DNA of 64,000 bases from Welwitschia mirabilis (Eukaryota). This document shows, piece by piece, positions 2,389-45,900 of the stretch. The notes under the pieces are model-generated. The model did no database searches. It had not been told where the DNA came from and was given only the letters and a program-made list of their open reading frames with translations. The stretch is from NCBI GenBank assembly GCA_051453625.1, contig JBOZIK010000001.1, forward strand, positions 47,674,809 through 47,738,808. The letters run 5' to 3'. Numbering within the stretch: the first letter of the stretch is position 1; each line of letters opens with the position of its first letter. The position numbers and the translations under genes are program-made.

Positions 2389-2405
2389 GCTCTGATACCA
2401 TGTAA
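2389..2405 (-). mobile_element. LTR-retrotransposon primer-binding site (tRNA-iMet) and LTR edge, orphan remnant
   Basis: The minus strand reads ...TTACA TGGTATCAGAGC, an LTR-terminal CA directly followed by a canonical PBS. Confidence 0.6.
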
Positions 2406-23782: not shown

Positions 23783-24919
23783 TAATGTTATGACTAAATG
23801 TTGGTATAGTGGCAAAGTATTGTAGCATTTAAGAGGAAGGTCTCAGGTTTAATTCTTGATGGATGGTAAAACCCCAATTTTTATAAATGTAATGTTTATA
23901 TTTTATTGAATGTCTCCACATTACATTTTGATATCAGAGCCATAAGATCACTAGTAATGTGGAGCTTGAGGATGAGCTCAATGTTAAGGTAGGTCGATTT
24001 ACATAGAAAAGTGCCTTAGCATTTTGGGTTGAATGGATTACTAGCTATGTCATCCTTTATGACATAACCCTGATTTGTTTTAGGGTCTTAGATTCTTAAA
24101 TTCTCTTAATCTGAAATTCTTTGAGCAAGATTAATTATATCTTTTAGTAACTTTAATAATATTTGCTTATACTTATGCTCTATAACCCATATATGTCTTT
24201 AACATTGGCTTGACTATAAACTCTTATTTATATTTTACATGTTATGTAGCTTGATTAGTATTCACTTAATTATTAATAATAATAGTTACCTCACCTTTAG
24301 TTATTCCATTTATTTTTTTAAGCTAAACATATAACTTTGGACTTATTCTACACATTTTATCCTTGACTTGTTAAGTTCTATATTGAGCATATTAACTTTT
24401 GAAGAAGAGATTCAACTAGATTATGTAAGAAAAAGTGTCAGAGAGGCATTGAAAGAAGCACATATAAAAGGTGTATAGATTGGAAGAGACTTCCAATTTA
24501 TGAACTAAGGCTTGAGGTATTTCTACATCTTTAGAAATGAGTGTTATAATTTGGAGTGTAAGATTGTTTTGTTGCAATATTTGATTTATAGTTTTGGATT
24601 TAATAATATAAGTTTATTTTCGCTTTTGGTTGTAGCAAGAAGATCATTGAGTTAGTTTGGTTTATAAAATTGAATGGTTCTCAATCATCTATAAGTACAT
24701 TCAACTATGCTCTTTTTCTTTACAAAACAATTATGTGATCTTTATATATCATATTATAAGAGATATGCTAGTTTATAACATTGTTCCTAATCTGATAATC
24801 ATTATGACTATAGGAAATGAAAAAGGTCATGTATAAAAGAATTTTGGATGAATGTTAAAGTTGATATACATATATAGTATAACTTTTAAAACACATATCA
24901 CGAATTCAAGTGAAGGGTA

Positions 24920-30738: not shown

Positions 30739-32575
30739 ATATATTTTTACTTATATATGTTTAAAATTAGTAAGAAAATGAAAAAGGGAATGAATACAAC
30801 CATGCCTAGGATACTAGTGGGTAATAGGAAACAAAACACCACGAAGAACTAGCATGATACACACTAGTAAATATGAGATAGGAACTTAAGGAGGAAAACA
30901 TTTCAAACAACTGAAGGATTTAGAATATATTAAAAAAGGAATGGGATGTATGCATAGGACCTAGGATGTTAAACATAATGTTATAAGTAAGAGCTATATC
31001 AGATGACCTTAGATAATTAACAGGAAAATTTTTAGTATAATGATAAGAATTAGGTTAAGGTCATTTAAAATAGGAAATACCCTATTTTAAGTTCTAGGGT
31101 ACTAAGAAATAACACCATGATACTAAGGAAAAATAAAGACTTTATTGGAAACTTATTTGGGTGTGTTTGCCTATAAAAGCAAGCTCTATTATTTGAAAAG
31201 AGAAGAAAAATAAAAATATATTTTCTAAATCTCACTCTCCTTTTTTATTGTTTAAGCTTAATCTTACATGTGGTATTTGGGTAGTTTTATTCTTACATAT
31301 GATATGAGAGCATAAACTATAGTTCATGAAACTCTTAGACCATGCATGCCTTTACATGATTCTTTTACCATAAAGACTTTTAAGACTTTCTCAAATTTTT
31401 TTGAATTTTTTAAAAGTATTTATAAGATTTTTTTTAAGATCTATGTAGTGTCTTTTACTTTCCTTTATTTTTTTTTATTTTCAAGGTTATTGTTCATTTG
31501 TATTGAAGTTATTTACAAGGTTGTTGTTCCTATATGTTTTTAATTCCCAAAGAAGATAAAAAGGCATAAAAGAAGAAGAGCAAGTATTGCATNNNNNNNN
31601 NNNNNNNNNNNNNNNNNNNNNNNNNNNNNNNNNNNNNNNNNNNNNNNNNNNNNNNNNNNNNNNNNNNNNNNNNNNNNNNNNNNNNNNNNNNNNNNNNNNN
31701 NNNNNNNNNNNNNNNNNNNNNNNNNNNNNNNNNNNNNNNNNNNNNNNNNNNNNNNNNNNNNNNNNNNNNNNNNNNNNNNNNNNNNNNNNNNNNNNNNNNN
31801 NNNNNNNNNNNNNNNNNNNNNNNNNNNNNNNNNNNNNNNNNNNNNNNNNNNNNNNNNNNNNNNNNNNNNNNNNNNNNNNNNNNNNNNNNNNNNNNNNNNN
31901 NNNNNNNNNNNNNNNNNNNNNNNNNNNNNNNNNNNNNNNNNNNNNNNNNNNNNNNNNNNNNNNNNNNNNNNNNNNNNNNNNNNNNNNNNNNNNNNNNNNN
32001 NNNNNNNNNNNNNNNNNNNNNNNNNNNNNNNNNNNNNNNNNNNNNNNNNNNNNNNNTTTTCATAAATTTTCATAGATTATTTTTTTGATTGGTTTTCTTT
32101 ATACTATAACAAGATATAGACATAACCAAAACCCTCTATATCAGTTAGAATCAAAGATTCTTTAATTTGTTATGCTTGTTATGAGCAGTATTTAAAAACT
32201 TTCGCTACACATTTGGATAGTATTGTCATTCCTGTTACCATTTAAAACTATTTCATGAAATGCTAATGGGGATTTTATTTTCTTAATTATTGAATGTAGT
32301 TATAGAAATATTCTCTACCTCATCAACCCATAACCTCTCTGTCATCTCTATTGAACAACACCGCTGCATGTCCTTAGCTTATGTTTCCTCTATACTCAAT
32401 GTCACAGTTCTTCACTGGCACCGATTTTGTTACTAATTCATTGCTTATTACTTTAGCATAGTTACTTTTTAGGTGATCTCACATCTATTTGTTACTTCTA
32501 GATGTATAGCTTTATGTCATTGAGTACTAATACCCCTACACGTGCTACCACTGATGGCCATTCTTAGCATGTCAT

Positions 32576-32904
32576 TGTTAGGCCTTTTATCATCACACCA
32601 AAAGCAATAACTTAGGTGGAATTTGGTAATCTAGAATCATTTACATTTACTTACTTATCGAGCTGGGCATGATGACTGCATATTCAACAATCATCCCCTT
32701 GATCCATATGCTAAGAGCTCATATGAACCGGGAAGGCACTAAGAAGACTCGAACCTGAGACCAGCTAATAATCATGGATCTGATACTAATTGTTAGGCCC
32801 TTTACTATGACACCAAAAAACCATGACTTAGGTGGAATCTATAAACTGGAACCCTTTATAATTATCCACTTGTCAAGCTAGGCATGAGTACCGCACACCA
32901 AAGA
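32576..32904 (-). mobile_element. Complete TRIM (terminal-repeat retrotransposon in miniature)
   Basis: 114-bp direct repeats at 32576-32689 and 32791-32904 (TGTTAGGCC...). The 101-bp internal part has a decayed iMet PBS and PPT TCAAGGGGAT on the minus strand. Perfect TSD GTCAT at 32571-32575 and 32905-32909. Confidence 0.93.
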
Positions 32905-33331
32905 GTCATCTGTTATTACCTGCGACCCTATCATCATCGGCTGAATTGCTAAAACCAGTTGCTATTTCTAGTCTCTGGTGACTACATCGCTACTGTAAAG
33001 CCTCTTCTGTTTAAGCTTGGGTAACATAACATAGAGGGCTTATCACTAGACATTTACCATGTCTACAACTCTAGTGATGTCTATTCTCCTGGAAGACAAA
33101 ATTTCTCTCTTTTAATACATACATGGACTTTGACATGAAGATAATCCCTAAGATCCCTTATCATCTTTTCCATTTGCTATATAAGCATATGTGTTTATTA
33201 CCTTAATTTTAAGAACATCATCAAGAGCACCTCTAATGAATCTCAATGCGAAGCCAATGAATTTGGCAAAGTTCTGAAAGAAATGAAGAGAAATATTATT
33301 CTTTATTTTATAAACATCTTACTATAGACAC

Positions 33332-36300
33332 TGTTAAAATGCAATACTAGCTCATGCAACATATTTCTTTGAAGACTTAGTTGTCTGAGCTTACTATTTT
33401 AGTTCTTAGTTTACTTGTTTAATTATTCCTATTTACTTGCTAAGTTGGGTAGTTTAGTACAGAGTTCATTACTTATTTTTAACTGATTTTTTGAATTGTG
33501 CAACTTCTTATTTCCTATTATTTTTGAGTTAATTCTAGTTAGTGAAGTTAGTGGGTTAGTTATTTAAAAGAAGGAGAACTATTATTAAGTTAGTGGAGTT
33601 AGTGAATTAGTTATTGAAAAGAAGGAGAACTATTATTAAGTTAGTGGAGTTAGTGGGTTAGTTACTACAAAATAAGGAGAACTATTATTGAGTTTCTTAC
33701 TTTTTATGCCTATATAAGGCTCTTTAGTTGCATTAAATAAAATTACTCCCTTCACAACATCTGTTTTGTTTTCTATGAGATTTTTTTATAGAGTGCACAT
33801 CCTATTTTCAAATTTATATTTAGTCTTTTTCTCTCTAGTTTTCATCATTTTGGTATCATAGCTAGGTGAATATTTTCTACTAGCAAGATGAATGATCTTC
33901 AAGTTATTAGCAGAATTAGAAAGCTTAACAATCAAAGCAACAATTCATGATCGACATGTATGAAATATAACATGCAAAGCCAAGACTTGTGGGAAGTTGT
34001 CAATGCAAGCAAAGTTATCCAACTGAAAGAGGATGCAAATGGTACATTGCAGAAATGGAGGATAAAAGTGATAAGGCAATGTTTACTTTAAAGACTATGA
34101 TTAAAGAAACACATCTGAAAGGTCAAAACCCCCAAAGAAGCTTGGGACACATTAGCCATGCTTTTCTCAGAGAAGAATGACACAAGGCTTCAACTTCTAG
34201 AGAGCACACTATTTTCGTAGCATAACGCGACATGACGATTGCTCAGTTCTTCCACAAGGTGAAGTTACTATGTCAAGAACTTTCTGAGTTAGATCTAGAA
34301 GCTCTAATCAGGGAAACTAGGATGAAAATAATAATTATCCATGGTTTGAGATCTAAATATAGAAGCTTTATTACTATAGTATAAGGATATCAAGAGCAAC
34401 CATCACTTGTTGAGTTCAAAAATTTTCTTGCTAGTCAGGAAGACTTAGCCAAGAAAATGAGAGGAGTTTCATAGAAGAATGAAGAGGAAGAATTCTATAT
34501 CAACAAAAGCAGATGGAATTCCAAGTAACACACCATTAATGGATCCAATAGGAATGAGGACAATGTAAAAAATAATTAACATAAAGGAAGCGACTATTCA
34601 GGGGGAGATTCGAAGAATCATGGCAATGGTAATAAATTTGAAGGTAAGTGCTACAATTATGAGAAGGATGATCATATGCAAAAGATTATTACAACAAAAA
34701 GTTTCAAAGAAAGTTTTATAATTATGGAAAGGATGGTCAGATGGCAAAAGATTGTCGGTCGAAGAAAAAGACCATAGAGAGTAATGCTGCTACTTCCAAA
34801 AGTGAAGATGAATGAAATGCTAAGTTACTCTTTGATGCAAAGGAGGATTTAGCTCTTATAACAACAATCTTTGAATATATTAATTATGAGAAAGATTGGA
34901 TCATCAACTCAAGATGCTCAAATCATATGATAGGTGATAAAGAAAAGTTGTAGAATTTGTTAGAATACAAAGGGAGCTAAGTGTTGTGACAACCAAAAAC
35001 TCAAAGTTACCGATAGCTCACATTGGTTATATGGTAGTTTCTCCTCAAAATAGTGCTAATGGGGTATCACTTCAAAATGTGTATTATGTTCCAAGTATGA
35101 AGAAAAATATTTTGTCAGTAGTAAAATTTACATCTTTAGGCTATTTTTTTCTATTTGGTATACAAGATATGAAGGTATATTGCGACTTTGAGGCTATAGG
35201 AGAGCCAATGGTGAAGGGATGAAGATTAGAGTCAGTCTATGTGATGTCTTTAGAAACTGCATATGTAGATAAGACGAGTAAGAATGAGACAGCAAATTTG
35301 TGGCACATGTGATTAAGTCACATTAGCTATTCCAAGCTAAACGTGATGATGAAAAATTCAATGTTAAAGGGACTTTTGAAACTCGAATTAAGATCAGATC
35401 TAATCTGCATAGGATGTCAGTATGAAAAAGCACATTAGTTGTCATATGAAGAGTCCAAATTTAAATCAAAGAAACCATTAGAGTTAATTAACTCTAATTG
35501 TTTGGACCTGTTAAGCAAGTCTCTATCAATGGGATGAAGTTTATGGTAACCTTTATTAATGATTTTTCTAAGGATGTGTGGGTTCATTTTATGAAGGAAA
35601 AATCTGAAGTTTTTTTCAATGGGTTCAAAGAGATAGCAGAACCAAAACTCGGTAAGAAAATTAATTACTTGCGTACTAAAAATAGGTCAGAGTATACCTT
35701 AGACAAGTTTTTCAATTTCATTTGAGAGTACCAAATCCATCATCAGTTCACATGTACCAATACTCTGTAGTAGAATGGTGTAGTAGAAAGAAAGAACAGG
35801 CACCTATTAGAAATATGTCATAGCATGCTTCATGCAAAGAATGTTATGGGATGATTTTGGATAGAAGTAATGAATACTATAGATTTTATAATCAATAGGA
35901 TTCCTCAACAAAGGTTAGGTTTTCTTTCACCTTTTAAAAATAGTGGAACATAAAACCTACAGTTAGCTATTTTCATGTTTTCAGATGTGTGTGCTATGTA
36001 TTTGTACATGATCATTTATGTAGCAAGATTAGTAAGAAGGCCATTAGATGTATCTTTATGGAATATGATAGTCAAAGAAAAGGATGAACATGTTGTGATC
36101 CTAAATTGAAAAATGCTACACGTCCCAAAATGTAGTATTTGATGAAGCATATTCTTGGTGGTTTTTAGAAAAGAAGATATTACTAAACTTAGATGCTTTT
36201 AAAGATGAGTTAAAGTTTACTCAAATTCAATTAAATTTAGGTCAAGAAGAAGATGCTGATGATAATGGTTATGTTAAAGAAGGCATAGCTCTTGGTCCTT

Positions 36301-38474
36301 GGCAAACTGATATGCATCATTAACCAAGCAAAGAAGATAAGCCTGTTGAAGTAGTAGTATCAACTCCACTTAGAAGATCAACAAGAATCAGAAAGCCAAA
36401 TTCCAAATATGCTAATGCTTCTATAATAGAAGAAGAAGATGCAATGGAATTAGAGACATTTGAGAAAGCATTTCAGAATCCAAATTGGATTAAAGCTATG
36501 AAAGAAAAACAATGAAATCACACTTGGGTGGTCATGCCAAAGCTAAGAGATGCGAAGCCTATTTCATGAAAATGGGTTTATAAAATAAAATGCCACATAG
36601 ATGGACCGATTAAGAGATACAAAGCTCTTCTAATAGTGAGAGGGTTCTTTCAATAATATGAACTAGACTATAAAGAAATGTTTAGTCCAGTTGCAAAGCT
36701 TACAACTCTGTAAGTCTTACTAGCACTTGTAGCTAGCAAAAGTTGGAATTTGTGATAGATGGATGTGAGGAATGCATTTCTACATGGAGAATTAGATTAA
36801 GAGATATACATGACTTAAATAATGGATTTTCAGAACCAAGATCATCCTTAGTATGTGTATAAGCTTTGAAAGGCACTCTATGAAATAAAGCAGACACTAA
36901 GGGCTTAGTATAATAAGATTGCTGAATTTTTGATTCATATGGTTATTCTATGACACCTATAGATTCTAGTTTATTTATTAAAGTTAATGGAGAAAAACTA
37001 GCTACTATGCTAGTGTATGTGAAATTGTGAAGAAAAAATCCAGTGAATGAAGAAGAATTTATTAATTCATTTCCAAATGAAAGAAATTAGACAACTCAAG
37101 CACTTTCTTGATCTATAGGTTGATCGTACTCAAGAAGGAATATTTCTTCATTAGCAAAAATATTATAAAAAATTGTTGAAGAAGTTTTAAATTCTTGAGT
37201 GCAAGCTAATTTTAACTCTAATGGAGCGAAACACCACAATGTGTGCCCATGAAGGGAGAAATTTGAAAGACATGATAATGTATCGATAGTTGGTGCATAG
37301 TTTGATCTACCTAACTTTAATCAAAGGAGATATTTTCTATGTAGTTGGTGTGAGGAATCAGTACATGCAAAATACAAAGAATCCCCATTTGAAAGGAGTG
37401 CAACAAATTTTAAGATATGTGAAGAGTACTCTAGACTATAGTATCTTGTATAAGAAAGGTGGAGATTGCAAGATAGTTGATTACTATGATGTTAACTATG
37501 CAAGTGATCATGATACTCGACATTCAATTACTGGGTATATTTTTATGCTAAGATGGGAAGCAATTTCTTATTGTAATAAAAGACAGCCAACTGTGTCTTT
37601 GTCAATAATAGAAGCAGAGTATCAAGCTACGACAAGTGTAACTCAAGAGAGTACTTGACTTATGCAATTGTTAAAGGACTTGAATCAGTTAATAGATTCT
37701 ATAGGTCCTCTATATTATGATAATCAGTCAGTAATACGTTTGATAGAGAATCTAGTTTTTCATGCAAGAACTAAACATATGGAGCTGCATTACCATTTTA
37801 TCAGGGAAAAAGTTCTAGAAGAAAAGGTTGAGTTGAAGCATATTCAAAAAAAAAAAAAAAATCAAGCTGCATATTTATTGATGACAAGATTATGTAGCAG
37901 CAAGTTGGAAAACTCTTGTTATTAGCTTGGCATAATGAAAAGAATGAAAGCTAGTGTTGAGTGGGAGTGTTAAAATGCAACACCATCTTATGTAACAAAC
38001 TTCTTTAAAGACTTGGTTGTCTAAGTTTACTATTTTAATTTTTGATTTAATTACTTAATTATTACTATTTACTTGCTAAATTGGTTAGTTTGTTACAGAG
38101 TCTACTACCTATTTTTAGCTTATATTTTAAATTATGCAAGTAGTTATTTCCCATTATTTTCTAGTTGAGTCTAGCTAGTGGAGCTAGTGGGTCAATTACT
38201 GAAAAGAAGGAGAACTGTTATTGAGTTAGTGGATTAGTTGCTAAAAAAAGGAGAACTATTATTAAGTTAGTAGAGTTAGTGGGTTAGTTACTAAAAAAAA
38301 AGGAGAACTATTATTGATTTTGTTCCTTTGTATGCCTACATAAAGCTCTTTAGTTGCATTAAATAAAATTACTTCCTTTACAACATTTGTTTTGTTTTTT
38401 ATGAGATATCTTCTACAAAGTGCACTTCATCTTCTCAAATTTATATTTGGTCTTTTGCTCTCTAATTTTCATCA
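33332..38474 (+). mobile_element. Full-length degenerate Ty1/copia element with both LTRs
   Basis: LTRs at 33332-33847 and 37968-38474 (TGTTAAAATGCAA...TTTTCATCA). PBS TGGTATCATAGC at 33851, PPT GAGTGGGAG before 37968. Motifs: gag QDLWEVV, protease WIINSRCSNHM, integrase FGPVKQ...FINDFSK, RT MDVRNAFLHG, RNase [19 protein letters not shown] and FHARTKH. Confidence 0.97.
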
Positions 38475-38545
38475 GAGTGGTGTAGCGGAGGTGTGATGGG
38501 CCCATAATCCACAGGTACTAGGATCAAAACCTTGCTTCGATACCA
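38471..38545 (+). pseudogene. Retro-copied initiator tRNA-Met(CAT) including the 3' CCA
   Basis: ATCAGAGTGGTGTAGCGGAGGTGTGATGGGCCCATAATCCACAGGTACTAGGATCAAAACCTTGCTTCGATA-CCA is colinear with plant cytosolic tRNA-iMet over 72 nt. It has about 12 substitutions, mostly transitions, an intact anticodon and an encoded CCA. Confidence 0.93.
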
Positions 38546-38753
38546 TGTCTATCCCTTGATCCACATGCCAAGTGCTCACATGAAACGGGAAGCCACCAGG
38601 GAGACTCAAACCTGAGACTAGCTAATAATCATGACTTTGATACCAATTGTTGGACTCATTACCATTACACCAAAATCCATGACTTAGGTGAAAACTTGAC
38701 CCATCATATTTCACCCACTGGTTGGGCTGAGCATGAGGACTGCATAACCAATA
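38546..38753 (-). mobile_element. Second TRIM copy (one LTR, PBS, internal domain, PPT); same family as 32576-32904
   Basis: ATCCCTTGATCCA...GACTCAAACCTGAGACTAGCTAATAATCATG...TGATACCAAT matches 32693-32790. The LTR is at 38648-38753 and the other LTR is absent. Confidence 0.92.
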
Positions 38754-39902
38754 GATACCTGAGAGGATGTGTAGCACAATCAATTTCTCTTCAAAATATT
38801 CAACTAAGTTTTAGTTTATAGTAGATTTTTACACCAACTTGTGAAGGGTATTACAGTGTCAGAAGTAGGGCCAATGACACGGGTATAACTGATGCACTAA
38901 ATTCTTTTCATATTCCCTAGTTTTAAGGGATAGTAGTGGAATTGTGGAAGATCTTTTAAGTGTTGTATCTATTAAGTAAATGAATGATGCATAACATAAA
39001 TAATAAAGAAGTGGATAAGACCAGCTATATATTTCAAAAGAAGAGAAATCATTAACTCTATTATTATGTGTTTTCCTTCCTAAGATTTAATTAAATCCTC
39101 CTAAAATCATTTTTTTACCTCTTTGTGTGGTATATTTTCCTTTTAATAGGCTTTCTTTTGTAGTTTTAGAGTTTAAACTTATCATAAATTGTTATGATTT
39201 CATTATAGATCTACTCATTTTGAGTTACTTTCTATTTTTAAAATTTTGAACTTTCTTTAGTATTGTAAACCTAAAATTTTTAAAATTTCTTAGACTAAGT
39301 CAAGTTGAGATATCTAATAAGATCCACTTGACTTGATTGTCTCTTTTAAACCTCATTATTTCACTTATAATTTAAATAGGTAAAGTTAAGAATGTTGTTA
39401 AGAAAGATCCACTTAAATTAACTATATCAAAATAAAGCCACTTTTTGCTTTTTTTGGTTTCTTAGGGCGTCTTTATTTTTTAAACTTAATAATAAAATTA
39501 AAAATTATACACTTCTTAATCACATAAGATATTTCACTAGCAATAATTCTTGGTTAATGGTGGATTCAGTCCTTTACATAGACATTGATCTATGTAATGC
39601 TACATTGTTTTTTGAGCTTGTTATATACTATTTAACTATCATAACTATGTAGTTTGATCCATATAGAGTGCCACGTCTCTCTAAACAGAAACATATTAGG
39701 CATTTAAAGTTATAGATTCCCATGTAAGCCTTAGTGATTAAGGGTGTATTAAGTGAAGACTAGAGGCACAATGGTAGGGTCTACTTAAATTTTATCATTA
39801 AGTCAGTAAGGAGGCATAAGTGTAATAAAAATTTAAAATTTACTGAGTCTAAGGTATAATGAAAACTAATCAACAAATTAGATGCCTCACTAATGTGATT
39901 TA

Positions 39903-42900
39903 TATTGAATTATTATTTGCCAATAGATGTCAAACTAATGGTTTTTATGTAGCATAATTTGTTTTATTTTGTGTAGAAAATATTGATCAGGTTAAAAGCT
40001 GTAGCAATGTATGTCACATTTTGATCTTGAAACCTGTTAAGTTGTGTTACCCTCTTAAGGGATCAATCGAAATTCTAAGGAGTCGACCACACCTAATGCG
40101 AACTCTCAGAAAAGAACTGAATTTAAAGGGATTGACCAAACATCTAAGGGGTCGATTGGACCTATGAACCTAAGAACCAATACTCCTGAACTGATCATCA
40201 AGGGTTCATACAGACATATAAGGGGTCGACTAGACATGAGTACTATGCACCCAATTCTTCCTAGCAGATCATCAAGGAGTTGGCCAGACACCTGAGGGAT
40301 TGACTAGATCTAAGAACTTTGCATCAATACTTCACACTCAATTAGCAAGAGGTCAACCAGATTCTCGAGAGGTCGCCTGAACCTGATGCAGAAAAACTGA
40401 GATGGATTTTATCAAGACTAAGTAGGTGACTAGATAGATCTACGGGTGACTGGATGAGCAGTCGACTAGATCCTAAGGGTTTAACTAGACATGGAGTCAT
40501 AAGAAACTGGATCAACCAAAAAGGTCACTAAGATGACTTGTTTAAGTGATAGCACTCGGAGGGATCGACCAGACTTTTGAGAAGTCGACTGATCGGAATG
40601 AAAATCTAAATTTTATAACCATCATGTAGTTATTTTATGGCCATTGGAAGTGCGTTTTCACTTGTAATAATCCTAAAAGTCTTCCACTACAAATAGCCAA
40701 GAGTCAAATCACTGTAACATCTTTTGTCAAACTATTGGATCTTGCGGATTGATTAGTGTACTCATTTGGCATTGTATTCCTGGCTAAAGAAAGACCAACA
40801 TTTATTACATCTTTGCATATAAGGTCAGATTTATAGCACTCCCTTGTTCTTAGATTATTTCATCTTTAAGTGAAGTACTTCATTACTTTCATCGAGCCAA
40901 AGATCAAGTGGTACCTATGCACTTGGGCATACTTTCATCACTATCATGTTTTCTTGCACAAAGGTTGAGACTGAGCCTTCAAAAAAGTCTGTTTATAAAG
41001 GTTACAAGTTAACTTGCAATACCTGGAAGAGTTTAATAGAGATCCGGATTAGGCTTGGATAGAAGCTAATTATCAAGAGTGGAATAGGATTTTTTCCAAA
41101 CCACTATAAAAACTTGTGTGCATATGATCGGTATTTGTGTGCTTTCTATTATTTTTATTTTTTAGAATACTTTTAGTTTTTATGCCTACTTTTTCCAGTG
41201 ATTCTTTTTCAAGTATAGTATTTTTATTTGAAGATTATTCAATAAATTTTTAGAATCCTATTCACCCCCCTCTCCCCTCCAAGGGTTGTCGATCCTTCAA
41301 TTGGTATCAGAGCTACCTTGAGTTTTTATTAAGATTTTAACCAATCTAGAGTCTAAAACCTGAAAATGAGTAATCCCTTTAATGGTTTTTCCACTGGTCC
41401 TTCACCTATATTTTATGAGCTAAATTATGCTTATTGGAAAGCTTAAATGAGAATATTCCTTAGATTCCTAGATGTAGATATTGAAAAGGTTATTTATGCC
41501 TGCGTTAGCAAAACATAATACAAATGGTAATCCCATTTTAGTCCCAAAAACCTAAGACCAATGGACTACCACTAATAGATCTAAAGCTATCAGACGTCGG
41601 TGATCTTAATGCTATATTTTATGTAGTTTATGTAGATAAATTTAAACAGATTATAAATTGTGAACATGCAAGAGAAGCATGGGATATTCTTAAAGTTACA
41701 CATAAAGGAACTTTCACAGTCAAGCAAGCCAAGCTCCAAATTCTTATCCCAAAATTTGAAGACATTTATATGGATGAGAAGGAAACATTATAGGACTTCT
41801 TTACTAGAATTATCAACATTATCAATTCTATGACAAGTCTACATAAATGATTAGATGAAGCAAAAGTGATAAAAAAAGTGCTGAGATTGTTTCCAAAGAG
41901 ATTTGAACTAAAAGTCATAGCTATCAAAGAAAGTAAGAATATCAACATAATGGTACTAGAAAAGCTTTAAGGTAATTTGCAAACATATGAACTAAATTTT
42001 CTAAAGATAAGAAGAAAGGTATTGCTTTGAAGTGTGTGCAGGAAGAGTATAAGTTAAAGAAGTCAGATTAAGAACTAAATGATAATGAAGTTTCTCTCCT
42101 AATAAGAAGATTCAAGAAATTCTTATACAAAAGGAAAAAGAAAGGTAAGCCAAGTAGAGGTATAAGACAAGAATACAAAAAGTACAGGAAGGAGTAAGAT
42201 AGAAAAAAAAAAGAGATCCAATGCTACGCTTGTAAAGGCTTTAGACATATGAAAAATGAGTGCCTAAACAACAAAAGAGAACACAAAAAATCAAAGACAT
42301 CTTTATTTGTTGCAACATGGGATAATGTGGATGAGGATTATGATAGCAATTCGGATCAAGACTCAGATGGAGATAAAAGACTATCTTTCATGGTGATTGT
42401 TTCTTCTCTACAAAACTTACCTAGCACATCGAAACCTAATGTTTTGAATGTGATTGAAGAAGAATAAGATGAGCTAGAAGATACTTATCAAGAATTATAT
42501 TTGGAATCTGAAAAGTTGGCAAAGAGAATAAATGATCTGAATAAGATTGTAAAGTCTCTCACCAAAAAAAAGAGGAAATGAAATTGAAGTAAAAAAAGAT
42601 CAAATCTAAAAATTCTGATTTTATGTTATAGGTAAAAGATTTATCTCATTTTGTTAATTATATTTTCTTAGAATTTAGAAACCAACTTATGATAAGTTAG
42701 GTATTGGCTTCATCCCTAAAAAATTACAAAATTAGTAAAATTAGGTAACTTGACAAAATAAATTTAGTTCTAAAGCTACTTGTTATTTCTATGGTAAGTC
42801 AGGGCATTCAAAACCATTTTCTAATGCTAAAAGGTTAATGCTATTTTCAAATTCAGTCAGTTCCTTTCCTTTTAAATTTATTTTAAAAGGAGGTATACCA

Positions 42901-45900
42901 CATAAGTCTAAAAGGACTAAGTGGGTGAAAGATAATGATTTGAAATGTCTCTTAATTTAGATAGCTTTCAAAGTTTCAAATGGTAGTAACTGTTATTTGG
43001 ATAGTGAATGCTCAAGACATATGATGGGAGATAAATCTAGATTCAAATAGTTAAGTAACTTTGATGGAGGAGAAGTTAGTTTGATAATAATGAAAGAGTA
43101 AAAATTGAAGGTATTGGAAGCATTGGTGGAGGTAACTTACCTAAAATTAATGATGTTTTATATGTTAATAGTTTAAAGCATAATTTACTGAGTATTAGTC
43201 AAATTTATGATAAAAGTAATAAAGTAGTTTTTAACAGGCCTAAATGTGAAATTTTACATGGTAAAACAAATAATTTTATTCTTAAAGTAAATAGAATAGA
43301 CAATGTTTATAGTATAGATCAATCGTTTTTCTTTTATTATTTTTCTCATGTTGCTCAAGAAGATCTTTAACATAATTAATCAAGTCATATTAATTATAAT
43401 CAATTAAAAATAATTATTTGTAAAAACATTGTGAAAGGTATTCCTAAAATAAATGTTTAAAAACATGGTTTATGTGATGCATGCTAAAATTGAAAACAAA
43501 TAAGAATTTCACATAAAAGTAAAAACCAAGTTTACACAACTATGTCGTTAGAGCTCATTCATATGGACTTGGTAGGCCCCACTCAAACTCAAAGTCTAGT
43601 TGGTAAACACTATTTTCTTACTGTGGTCGATGATTTATCTAGATATACATGGGTTGCATTTTTTTCAAACAAATCTAAAACTTACAAATATTGAGTGGAG
43701 ATATGTAATAAGATTTAAAATAAGAAATAGTATACCATAAAGAAAATAATAAGTGATATGGTGATGAATTTAAGAATTATTTATTTGAGAAATATTGCAT
43801 TGACAATGGAATTAATCATTAATTTTCAGCCCCTAAAACACTGTAACAAAATGGTATAGGTAAAAGAAATAATAGAGTCCTCCAAGAAATGGCACAAACT
43901 ATGTTAAATGACAAGGAGGTTCCAAAATTATTTTGGGTTGAGACTATTAGCAGTGTATGTTATATTATCAATAAAGTTTATCTTAGACTTGGTATGGATA
44001 AAATGTCATATGTGTTATGAAAAGGAAGACAACTTAATGTTTCATAATTTAAAATCTTTGAAAGTAAATGTTATATGCTAAAAGATAGATATTAGTCAAG
44101 AAAATTTAAATCTAAAGCCGATGAAGCTATATTTTTGGGTTATTTAACTAAAAGTAAAGCTTATCATGTCTTCAACAAGAGAAGTCTAACTATAAAAGAA
44201 TCAATAAATGTGCAAATTGATGATGTTAGCACAAAGCCTATTTGTTCAAATGATGAAGAAGACATATCTCCAAGCACGCCCACAACTAATGTAGTATCTA
44301 CTAAGAATGAAGAATGTCCTATAAAAGAAGTGACAACTAAAATGTTCAAAGAGCTAAAAGATCATCCTTTAGGGTCTATTATTGGAGAAGTTAGCTCAAA
44401 AATAAAGATAAGGAGTTCTATAAAGAACTTTTATGCCCACATTTGTTATGTGTCTTAAATATAATCTAAGAAATTTGAAGAACATGAATCCCATAAAGAA
44501 TGGATGACGGCTATGCAGGATGAATTACAATAATATAAGAGAAATGATGTTTGGAAGGCTGTAGAAAGGCTAAAAGACAAAAATGTTATTGGAACAAAGT
44601 GGATCTTTAAGAACAAGTATGATGAAGAAAATAATGTTATTAAAAATAAAGCAATATTAGTAGCACAAAGATACAACCAAATAGAAGGCATTGATGTAGG
44701 CAGCACCTATGCTTCAGTTACAAGGCTTGATAGCATTTGAATGTTTTTATTACTTGTAGCTTTTAAAAATTTTGAAGTGTATCAAATGGATGTAAAGAGT
44801 TAGTTTTTAAATGGTCCCTTACATAAAGAAGTTTATATAGATCAACTACAAGGTTTTATTGATCCTCATAAATCTTATCATATTTATAAACTTAAGAAAG
44901 CTTTGTATGAGTTGAAGCAAGCTCTAAGAGCTTGGTATAAAAAGTTAGCCACTTTTTTGAATGATAATGATTATATTTGTGGAATGGTAGATAAGACTTT
45001 ATNNNNNNNNNNNNNNNNNNNNNNNNNNNNNNNNNNNNNNNNNNNNNNNNNNNNNNNNNNNNNNNNNNNNNNNNNNNNNNNNNNNNNNNNNNNNNNNNNN
45101 NNNNNNNNNNNNNNNNNNNNNNNNNNNNNNNNNNNNNNNNNNNNNNNNNNNNNNNNNNNNNNNNNNNNNNNNNNNNNNNNNNNNNNNNNNNNNNNNNNNN
45201 NNNNNNNNNNNNNNNNNNNNNNNNNNNNNNNNNNNNNNNNNNNNNNNNNNNNNNNNNNNNNNNNNNNNNNNNNNNNNNNNNNNNNNNNNNNNNNNNNNNN
45301 NNNNNNNNNNNNNNNNNNNNNNNNNNNNNNNNNNNNNNNNNNNNNNNNNNNNNNNNNNNNNNNNNNNNNNNNNNNNNNNNNNNNNNNNNNNNNNNNNNNN
45401 NNNNNNNNNNNNNNNNNNNNNNNNNNNNNNNNNNNNNNNNNNNNNNNNNNNNNNNNNNNNNNNNNNNNNNNNNNNNNNNNNNNNNNNNNNNNNNNNNNNN
45501 NNNNNNNNNNNNNNNNNNNNNNNNNNNNNNNNNNNNNNNNNNNNNNNNNNNNNNNNNNNNNNNNNNNNNNNNNNNNNNNNNNNNNNNNNNNNNNNNNNNN
45601 NNNNNNNNNNNNNNNNNNNNNNNNNNNNNNNNNNNNNNNNNNNNNNNNNNNNNNNNNNNNNNNNNNNNNNNNNNNNNNNNNNNNNNNNNNNNNNNNNNNN
45701 NNNNNNNNNATGCAAAAGATTTAATCAAATATTTTGGATTGGAGAATGCTAAAACAACTGATACTCCAATGTCAAATTCTTGTAAAGGCAATTTGGATGA
45801 AAATAAAAATTAGTAGATCAGAAGCTTTATAGGAGCATGATTAGAAGTTTATTATATTTGACTACAAGTAAACCAGATATTATGTTTAGTATTGGTGTTT

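Follow-up and report, generated by a model that had tools for sequence, protein, structure and literature searches.

A degenerate copia element joined tail to tail with an inverted one-LTR TRIM through a copy of the initiator tRNA-Met in Welwitschia mirabilis

The analysed window comprises 64,000 nt of contig JBOZIK010000001.1 of Welwitschia mirabilis (assembly GCA_051453625.1). It contains an old, dead copia element that is connected tail to tail, via a reverse-transcribed copy of the initiator tRNA-Met (tRNA-iMet), to a TRIM with only one LTR (TRIM B). A complete member of the same TRIM family (TRIM A) is located 422 bp upstream of this composite insertion. The features of the locus are compiled in Table 1. 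All sequence letters named in an initial annotation of this DNA were found where it had placed them.

Table 1. Features of the composite locus and the neighbouring TRIM (positions in the window)
Feature	Position	Strand	Basis or remark
Complete TRIM A with flanking duplication	32571..32909 (element 32576-32904)	-	LTR-PBS-internal-PPT-LTR
Left candidate target-site duplication GACAC	33327..33331	.	directly before first base of copia 5′ LTR
Degenerate Ty1/copia element	33332-38474	+	LTRs 85% identical; ends in ...TTTTCATCA
Copia 5′ LTR, 516 nt, TGTTAAAATG...TTTTCATCA	33332..33847	+	aligned with 37968-38474
Copia PBS for initiator tRNA-Met, after TTT spacer	33851..33867	+	1 mismatch to 12-nt iMet motif
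Degenerate copia gag-pol	33868..37958	+	Pfam, stops read as X
Copia polypurine tract GAGTGGGAG	37959..37967	+	purine-rich run immediately 5′ of 3′ LTR
Copia 3′ LTR, 507 nt	37968..38474	+	LTR pair alignment
Decayed reverse-transcribed tRNA-iMet copy with 3′ CCA, 75 nt	38471..38545	+	Rfam RF00005, plant consensus
Orphan dinucleotide TG between CCA and TRIM	38546..38547	.	unmatched in TRIM A or read-derived other copies
TRIM B internal domain, PPT at left end (about 38548-38563, + strand)	38548..38633	-	
TRIM B iMet PBS (38634-38645) and AT spacer (38646-38647)	38634..38647	-	PBS with 2 mismatches to motif
TRIM B 5′ LTR, its only LTR, 106 nt	38648..38753	-	TRIM A alignment; high read depth
Right candidate target-site duplication GATAC	38754..38758	.	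4/5 versus GACAC; directly after TRIM LTR terminus

Over 506 aligned positions, the two copia LTRs share 430 bases, and the alignment has 12 gap columns. The resulting K2P of 0.171 would correspond, at substitution rates in common use for plants, to an age of very roughly several million years. They start with TGTT and end with ATCA, i.e. they carry the TG...CA termini of Ty1/copia elements, and a self-match search revealed an internal 51-bp tandem repeat in the 5′ LTR. Pfam analysis detected RVT_2 (E = 2.6e-38), gag_pre-integrs, Pol_BBD, and SH3_retrovirus, as well as weak matches to rve, Retrotran_gag_2, and DUF4219. The domains follow the Ty1/copia order (gag, protease, integrase, reverse transcriptase), and the three frames are interrupted by 80, 141, and 82 stops. 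Within the window, no copies of the copia LTR were found outside the element.

Immediately downstream, a tRNA-like stretch aligned end to end with Rfam RF00005 (1-71 of 71), with the anticodon CAT and a subsequent CCA. Its score in a 101-base search was 20.4 bits (E = 0.022), below the gathering score of 29; a 6.5-kb Rfam search did not detect the stretch, ARAGORN found no tRNA anywhere in the window, and folding was no better than that of shuffled sequences (z = 0.57), with no cloverleaf. The low Rfam score, the ARAGORN result, and the missing cloverleaf are consistent with decay. Of the 18 nt at its 3′ end, which finish in ACCA, 15 agree with the published consensus for plant initiator tRNAs. 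Plant nuclear tRNA genes are not known to encode CCA, which speaks against a resident nuclear gene or pseudogene at this site; the CCA marks the source as a mature tRNA that was reverse-transcribed. The primer sites of both copia and the TRIM fit this same tRNA species. As a control, the complement of the tRNA-like stretch was compared with nine other iMet primer sites. Likeness was limited to the short primer-site stretch, reaching about 17 nt in the copia PBS and extending little past the 12-nt motif elsewhere, and none of the nine sites matched the full tRNA.

TRIM A displays the complete organization of a TRIM (two short LTRs, PBS, PPT, and a short non-coding domain), and its LTRs are 76.5% identical. 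It is flanked by a perfect 5-bp duplication (GTCAT), so this TRIM family is shown to make 5-bp duplications. TRIM words reached a depth of thousands, compared with about 3-6 in the flanks, in all three contig runs; the TRIM is thus a dispersed multi-copy family. Small LTR pairs, an iMet PBS, a PPT, 5-bp duplications, and high copy number are likewise properties of the TRIM families described in the available text of two surveys (PMC4717578, PMC13570524). TRIM B resembles TRIM A in its internal domain (82 of 102 aligned positions identical; 83.5% over 139 nt by BLAST), in the identical AT spacer, and in its LTR, which is 70-71% identical to the two LTRs of TRIM A. The inverted TRIM of the initial annotation, with PPT, internal domain, PBS, and LTR, is therefore real and present in high copy number, but it has a single LTR; the 3′ LTR is absent, and TRIM B lacks the LTR pair of a complete TRIM. 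Unlike Helenus/TRIMp3 with its tRNA-like LTR, TRIM B gave no tRNA-derived match with Rfam at E up to 1 or with ARAGORN. Words resembling box A and box B were noticed in TRIM B by eye only.

Loose ends before 38553, derived from other TRIM copies, were counted in 28 contigs (X1), 26 contigs (X7), and 52 reads (X14). Since these copies have an LTR where TRIM B has the tRNA, the break lies at the PPT/U3 border. A linker TGTCT had been proposed between tRNA and TRIM. These letters are present, but TCT aligns with TRIM A and with the read-derived copies and thus belongs to the TRIM, leaving only TG unaccounted for.

At the inner joint on the copia side, the tip of U5 meets tRNA base 1 (base 5 if the ATCA overlap is counted): the first four nucleotides of the tRNA copy are also the last four of the 3′ LTR, so that the letters at 38471-38474 serve both, as previously annotated. 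On the TRIM side, the CCA-3′ end meets the PPT/U3 border within 1-2 nt. Four bases are shared at the LTR/tRNA joint and 0-1 at the tRNA/TRIM joint. All four inner junction points lie at natural molecule ends; they are not random breakpoints. The tRNA-like stretch and each of the two flanks occur only once in the window. Two simple routes to the TRIM-side joint were discarded: (i) mispriming by the tRNA at the beginning of the TRIM U3, where GGTAT occurs, predicts bases after CCA that disagree with TG; and (ii) if the AT spacer had been present, CCA-TG-TCT could not have resulted from subsequent loss of the TRIM 3′ LTR in one deletion. In the strong-stop-DNA model for the origin of tRNA-derived SINEs, U5-R sequence is predicted after CCA. 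The present junction is similar in that a CCA-bearing tRNA is covalently continued by retroelement minus-strand DNA, but here the PPT, and not U5-R, follows 2 nt after CCA.

The outer ends of the block are exact LTR termini on both sides, with 33332 (copia LTR start) set by the LTR pair alignment and 38753 (TRIM LTR start) by alignment with the complete TRIM A. The initial annotation had described GACAC before copia, no matching duplication after its 3′ LTR, and GATAC, one base different, after the TRIM LTR, and all three points hold. Copia has no 5-bp duplication of its own, as GAGTG after the 3′ LTR agrees with GACAC at only 2/5 positions. GACAC and GATAC, in turn, form a 4/5 direct repeat exactly at the position predicted for a single 5-bp duplication. 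Chance frequencies were taken from the window itself: 0.8% of its 5-mers differ from GACAC by at most one mismatch, and among 5-mer pairs drawn from it at random, 2.8% agree at 4/5 positions or more. No other offset up to 6 bases from any of the three candidate boundaries gave more than 2/5. The duplication is imperfect, and its one mismatch counts against a single event; with a K2P of 0.171 between the LTRs, one change in ten duplicated bases is expected.

We favour, with moderate confidence, one integration event in which the U3 end of copia and the U3 end of the TRIM lay outside and the inner ends were connected through template jumping of reverse transcriptase or through end joining. Against this reading, it is drawn from a single old locus, the listed contigs do not show the two inner junctions, and no empty site was among the 15 joints listed from the read comparison, which gave 167 more. 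A single integrase-mediated event would have inserted a composite DNA with U3-type LTR ends on both outer sides, with a Ty1/copia cDNA supplying one of them and an oppositely oriented TRIM cDNA the other, and would have made one 5-bp duplication (GACAC), the right copy of which may later have mutated to GATAC. The inner ends would have been linked via a DNA copy of the whole mature initiator tRNA-Met. This reading postulates that a plant copia integrase can use two U3 ends together, which counts against it.

[quoted passage not shown] The tRNA would then have been copied through to its 5′ end, and the terminal TGAT would have paired with ...ATCA-3′ of the finished copia plus strand, which would have been copied in turn. 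That these jumps took place in one particle containing both TRIM and copia, and that one intasome used both U3 ends, is a tentative and rather doubtful elaboration. Host end joining of the same inner ends fits equally well, as does one intasome holding ends of two cDNAs, the free ends of which were joined later. The missing TRIM 3′ LTR and the missing AT spacer at CCA, which TRIM B does have beside its own primer site, are not predicted by a simple model and count against the single-event reading.

The earlier proposal that one composite cDNA had been integrated finds support in the exact outer termini, the 4/5 repeat, and the non-random joints, but the route as originally written is not supported. 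Between CCA and the polypurine tract, a canonical tRNA-primed TRIM minus strand should contain the AT spacer together with the complement of the entire LTR (about 106-114 nt), where 2 nt are present. Co-packaging, which had also been proposed, is not a necessary consequence, because nuclear end joining or one intasome with two cDNAs yields the same product. The identification of this copia as the helper of the TRIM is without independent sequence support: the two elements have nothing detectable in common except a primer site for iMet and a terminus of the TGTT...CA type.

Two alternatives to a single integration appear improbable. In the first, capture would have been independent of integrase, with a break patched by end-joined copia, tRNA, and partial TRIM cDNAs, so that GACAC and GATAC agree by chance. 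Capture of retrotransposon cDNA at breaks has been published (PMC4516963), and end joining typically leaves marks such as the 4-nt overlap of one joint and the two filler bases of the other. However, both outer ends are intact to the final LTR base, and the flanking 5-mers match at a position preset by the LTR ends, for which the chance is 0.8-2.8%. In the second, judged equally improbable, one or two copia elements and an older remnant of tRNA and TRIM would have been separate insertions that came together when a deletion or unequal recombination removed the intervening DNA. Retroelements abound in the region, every part is old enough for rearrangement, and another TRIM lies 422 bp away. Deletion ends would nevertheless have to coincide exactly with the tip of the copia LTR, the ends of the tRNA, and the PPT/U3 border, and the flank match would again require chance. 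Moreover, no TRIM LTR remnant was seen in the left flank, and the position of tRNA-CCA beside the TRIM polypurine tract would still need an explanation of its own.

We regard an assembly artefact, i.e. unrelated repeats joined in the contig, as very unlikely. In its favour are six N gaps in the window, the high copy number of the TRIM and of part of the LTR, and the lack of a listed contig across the inner junctions (38474-38553). The contig at the right end covers 29 nt on the TRIM side, below our bridging threshold of 31 nt. The junction between left flank and copia was found in three of three contig runs (X1, X3, and X7), including the run labelled organism B, and was bridged cleanly in X1 and X3 and with one mismatch in X7. 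Assemblers create mis-joins where long words are shared, but these joints have only 4 and 0-1 bases in common, and the tRNA copy, decayed like its neighbours, has no second copy in the window. Least probable of all is a resident tRNA-iMet gene or pseudogene beside which copia and TRIM both landed, since, although tRNA genes are targeted by some retrotransposons in other organisms (PMC5006619), neither copia nor TRIM B has its own duplication here, the TRIM is without an LTR precisely at the joint, and the CCA speaks for a mature tRNA.

Several known systems share parts of this arrangement. Template switching at microsimilarities leads to integrated chimeric LTR cDNAs in virus-like particles (Tan et al. 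2016, PMC5131818). Common to both cases are an integrated composite cDNA, short shared or inserted bases at the fusions, and LTR ends outside. In the chimeras covered by the available text of that paper, a host mRNA serves as the partner and lies, in the same orientation, flanked by two LTRs from one element, whereas our block contains an inverted second retroelement, two outer U3 ends, and a whole-tRNA bridge. Copies of tRNAs adjoining LTR ends have been described both in MLV circles and in a provirus of HIV (PMC12220202). In the MLV circle, a near-whole tRNA copy likewise adjoins an LTR end, but the circle, as presented there, is unintegrated, has both LTRs of one virus, and involves tRNA-Gly, called a spurious primer; here, the DNA is integrated, two element families take part, and the tRNA is the normal primer species. 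In the HIV case, from cultured cells, a tRNA-Gly cDNA with CCA adjoins the 3′ LTR of the provirus (Gurgo and Franchini 2025, PMC12220202). The CCA-bearing tRNA copy in place of the expected duplication at the 3′ LTR and the microhomology at the joints are common to both loci. According to the available part of that report, however, the tRNA replaced host DNA, its independent integration was favoured by the authors, and no second retroelement was involved.

Among TRIMs, derivatives that are chimeric or truncated occur commonly, and for most families an autonomous partner is not known, as far as the available text of the two surveys goes (PMC4717578, PMC13570524). The chimeras reported there combine non-autonomous parts, with extra LTRs donated by other TRIM families, unlike the tRNA bridge and inverted autonomous copia under one duplication considered here. 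Related larger elements are given for 11 of 289 TRIM subfamilies (Gao et al. 2016, PMC4717578), and a sugar beet survey from 2026 lists 61 of 115 non-autonomous families as unlinked (PMC13570524). Helpers of TRIMs are usually inferred from sequence likeness. A composite under one duplication would be a different kind of evidence, because it places ends from the two elements together in one integration complex. If the single-event reading is true, the locus would be one of the rare integrated traces left by the copying of an entire primer tRNA and would indicate that two U3 ends can act as an integration substrate in a plant. If the two cDNAs did share one particle and one intasome, it would be direct physical evidence that the particle and integrase of this copia lineage served the TRIM family. 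The anatomy of the block also suggests a rule for genome-wide searches, namely LTR end, then tRNA-iMet-CCA, then inverted element.

TRIM A was also considered as the source of TRIM B in the form of a filler copy. This candidate was rejected, as TRIM B is 71% identical to the 5′ LTR of TRIM A compared with 76.5% between the LTRs of TRIM A. The short distance of TRIM A from the insertion point counts against the single-event reading and may reflect either coincidence or local factors.

Reading of positions 33000-39200, together with pairwise alignments, established the plus-strand order of a composite consisting of a degenerate copia element, a probable tRNA-iMet copy, and an inverted one-LTR TRIM copy (TRIM B), flanked by GACAC and GATAC. 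The surrounding window (30% G+C, six N gaps) is AT-rich and plant-like in appearance.

Features of the composite and of the complete TRIM copy upstream of it (window positions)
Feature	Position	Strand	Evidence or remark
TRIM A, complete	32576-32904	minus	LTR, AT spacer and iMet primer site, internal domain of ~100 nt, polypurine tract, second LTR
Left flank end, GACAC	33327-33331		outside copia 5′ LTR
Copia 5′ LTR	33332-33847	+	LTR pair alignment
TTT spacer, then copia initiator-tRNA primer site	33851-33867 (primer site)	+	
Copia coding region, degenerate	between primer site and polypurine tract	+	Pfam, stops read as X
Copia polypurine tract	37959-37967	+	
Copia 3′ LTR	37968-38474	+	LTR pair alignment
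tRNA-like stretch, 75 nt	38471-38545	+	Rfam tRNA model; CCA at 38543-38545
TRIM B	38548-38753	minus	
Right flank, GATAC	38754-38758		

The copia element is of the Ty1/copia type. Pfam detected gag_pre-integrs, Pol_BBD, SH3_retrovirus, and RVT_2 (E = 2.6e-38) in Ty1/copia order, with weak matches for rve and gag. Its three frames contain 80, 141, and 82 stops, which marks the element as old and dead. Of the 506 positions aligned between the two LTRs, 430 are identical (K2P 0.171, 12 gap columns). Within the LTRs a 51-bp unit is repeated in tandem about three times (33537-33694 and 38173-38315); read depth over it was in the thousands, far exceeding the rest of the element, so it is common to other repeats. 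A run of 15 A within the RNase H region (37847-37861) was passed over as a repeat by the read comparison.

BLAST of the composite tail against the window returned a relative 5.9 kb upstream, TRIM A, flanked by a perfect 5-bp duplication (GTCAT at 32571-32575 and 32905-32909), with LTRs that are mutually only 76.5% identical. TRIM B belongs to the same family and has the same orientation; its alignment with TRIM A begins at the LTR start (38753), covers primer site and internal domain, and reaches the polypurine tract. The family is present in high copy in contigs and reads of four sequencing runs (coded X1, X3, X7, and X14). In other copies an LTR complement lies directly before position 38553, seen as loose ends in 28 contigs of X1, 26 of X7, and 52 reads of X14; TRIM B is hence cut at the PPT/U3 border and is without its entire 3′ LTR. 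A derivation of TRIM B from TRIM A was ruled out by LTR comparison; a complete TRIM only 422 bp from the insertion point is a coincidence that the reading as a single composite does not account for. Two words ~60 nt apart on the minus strand of the TRIM (within 38600-38680 and 32740-32820) resemble promoter boxes: a box-A-like one close to the LTR end and a box-B-like one (GGTTCGAGTC in TRIM A) in the internal domain. These words recall the pol III promoters of TRIMp3-type elements; the tRNA model gave no match backing them.

The tRNA-like stretch begins with ATCA (38471-38474), which is also the last four bases of the copia LTR. Positions 1-71 of the Rfam tRNA model aligned to it, giving anticodon CAT, and CCA comes next. 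Score-based evidence for a tRNA was weak: searching 101 bases gave 20.4 bits (E = 0.022), where the gathering score is 29; an Rfam search of 6.5 kb and ARAGORN did not detect it, and folding was no better than for shuffles. Its identity is better supported. The first base, A, pairs with a T near the 3′ end, a mark of eukaryotic initiator tRNAs. As plant nuclear tRNA genes are not known to encode CCA, its presence argues for reverse transcription. Fifteen of the 3′ 18 nt are identical to the plant initiator-tRNA consensus (PMC4974523). We read the stretch as a mature initiator tRNA that was probably copied into DNA and has since decayed. Its three differences in 18 nt are above the ~8-9% per-copy decay implied by the copia LTR pair but, given a short G+C-rich stretch, compatible with it, so that the ages need not clash.

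The placing of both outer termini does not depend on the flanking 5-mers: position 33332 follows from the LTR pair and 38753 from alignment with TRIM A, and GACAC and GATAC lie directly outside them. When 5-mers of the window were paired at random 2,000,000 times, 2.8% of the pairs matched at no fewer than four of five bases; only 0.8% of window 5-mers are within one mismatch of GACAC. At the other offsets up to 6 bases from three points (TRIM end, copia 3′ end, tRNA end), no match exceeded 2/5. With about three candidate boundaries allowed for, the probability of a chance match is still only a few percent. Given how far the LTRs have diverged, one substitution among the ten duplicated bases is to be expected.

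Capture of cDNAs during break repair, with the 5-mers matching by chance, is improbable, as are serial insertions with later deletions; against both stand the exactness of the termini, the matching flanks, and the very short joint overlaps. The same three features make a misassembly very unlikely. The filled left junction was bridged with 0-1 mismatches in X1, X3, and X7 (X3 carrying a second species label); no contig among those listed crossed the two inner joints, and the 15 joints listed (with 167 further ones beyond those) included no empty site. A resident tRNA gene serving as target is scarcely credible, with CCA present and separate duplications absent.

The inner junctions fall at (i) the copia U5 tip, (ii) the tRNA 5′ end, (iii) the tRNA CCA end, and (iv) the TRIM PPT/U3 border. 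All four are natural ends of molecules of retroelement replication, points that random deletion or breakage would not pick. The initial annotation had placed a TGTCT linker after the tRNA. Comparison of TRIM A and read-derived copies with TRIM B assigned TCT to the TRIM, leaving TG (38546-38547) as the only orphan bases; the G may be a mutated spacer base between polypurine tract and LTR, in which case a single base would be surplus. In a tRNA-primed TRIM minus strand, as had been proposed, CCA would be followed by the AT spacer and the complement of the entire LTR, and these are absent; a single later deletion was rejected as well, CCA-TG-TCT not being derivable from CCA-AT-TGTTGG.... The tRNA copy is sense relative to copia, which excludes read-through of copia's own primer, as that would yield the complement. 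With respect to TRIM B it is in complement, the orientation predicted for a tRNA copied by a TRIM plus strand.

The simplest route we propose is a jump of the TRIM plus strand via the tRNA to copia. The strand would arrive at the PPT/U3 border, the onset of obligatory strand displacement, add one or two bases, jump onto a tRNA-iMet at its 3′ end, and copy it through to the 5′ end. Its terminal TGAT could then anneal to ...ATCA-3′, where a completed copia plus strand ends, and that strand would be copied in turn. Both outer ends of the product would be U3 ends, TGTTAAAA... on one side and TGTTGG... (today TATTGG) on the other, and one intasome might insert it with a 5-bp duplication. The same sequence could also arise by host end joining of these ends, or if one intasome took single ends from two cDNAs whose free ends were joined later. 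Co-packaging, previously proposed as recorded here, is one route among several and not a consequence. Beyond TGTT-type termini and the primer site, no sequence common to TRIM and copia was detectable; the shared duplication is hence the sole ground for suggesting that this copia acted as TRIM helper.

Published work describes parallels: microsimilarity template switching leading to integrated chimeric LTR cDNAs (PMC5131818); an MLV circle with a tRNA copy between its LTRs, four 5′ bases missing, and a CCA-bearing tRNA-Gly copy beside an HIV 3′ LTR (both PMC12220202); and plus-strand synthesis continuing into the primer tRNA when modified-base stops are lacking (PMC8599865). Taken singly, the ingredients have precedents, since chimeric LTR cDNAs, chimeric TRIMs, and LTR ends bearing tRNA copies are all known. 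In the literature covered by full-text searches, no report was found of their combination, in which a primer tRNA links an autonomous copia to an inverted TRIM within one duplication.

Further probable LTR elements were noted in the window. A second copia-like element on the plus strand (41302-45000) has at position 41302 a perfect iMet primer site, followed by ORFs that by eye resemble gag, zinc knuckle, integrase, and reverse transcriptase, and extends into an N gap at 45003. Additional iMet primer-site matches at 2389-2400 (minus) and 23929-23940 (plus), each after an ...ACA-type LTR end, suggest more such elements; at one of the two, the LTR abuts the primer site without a spacer.
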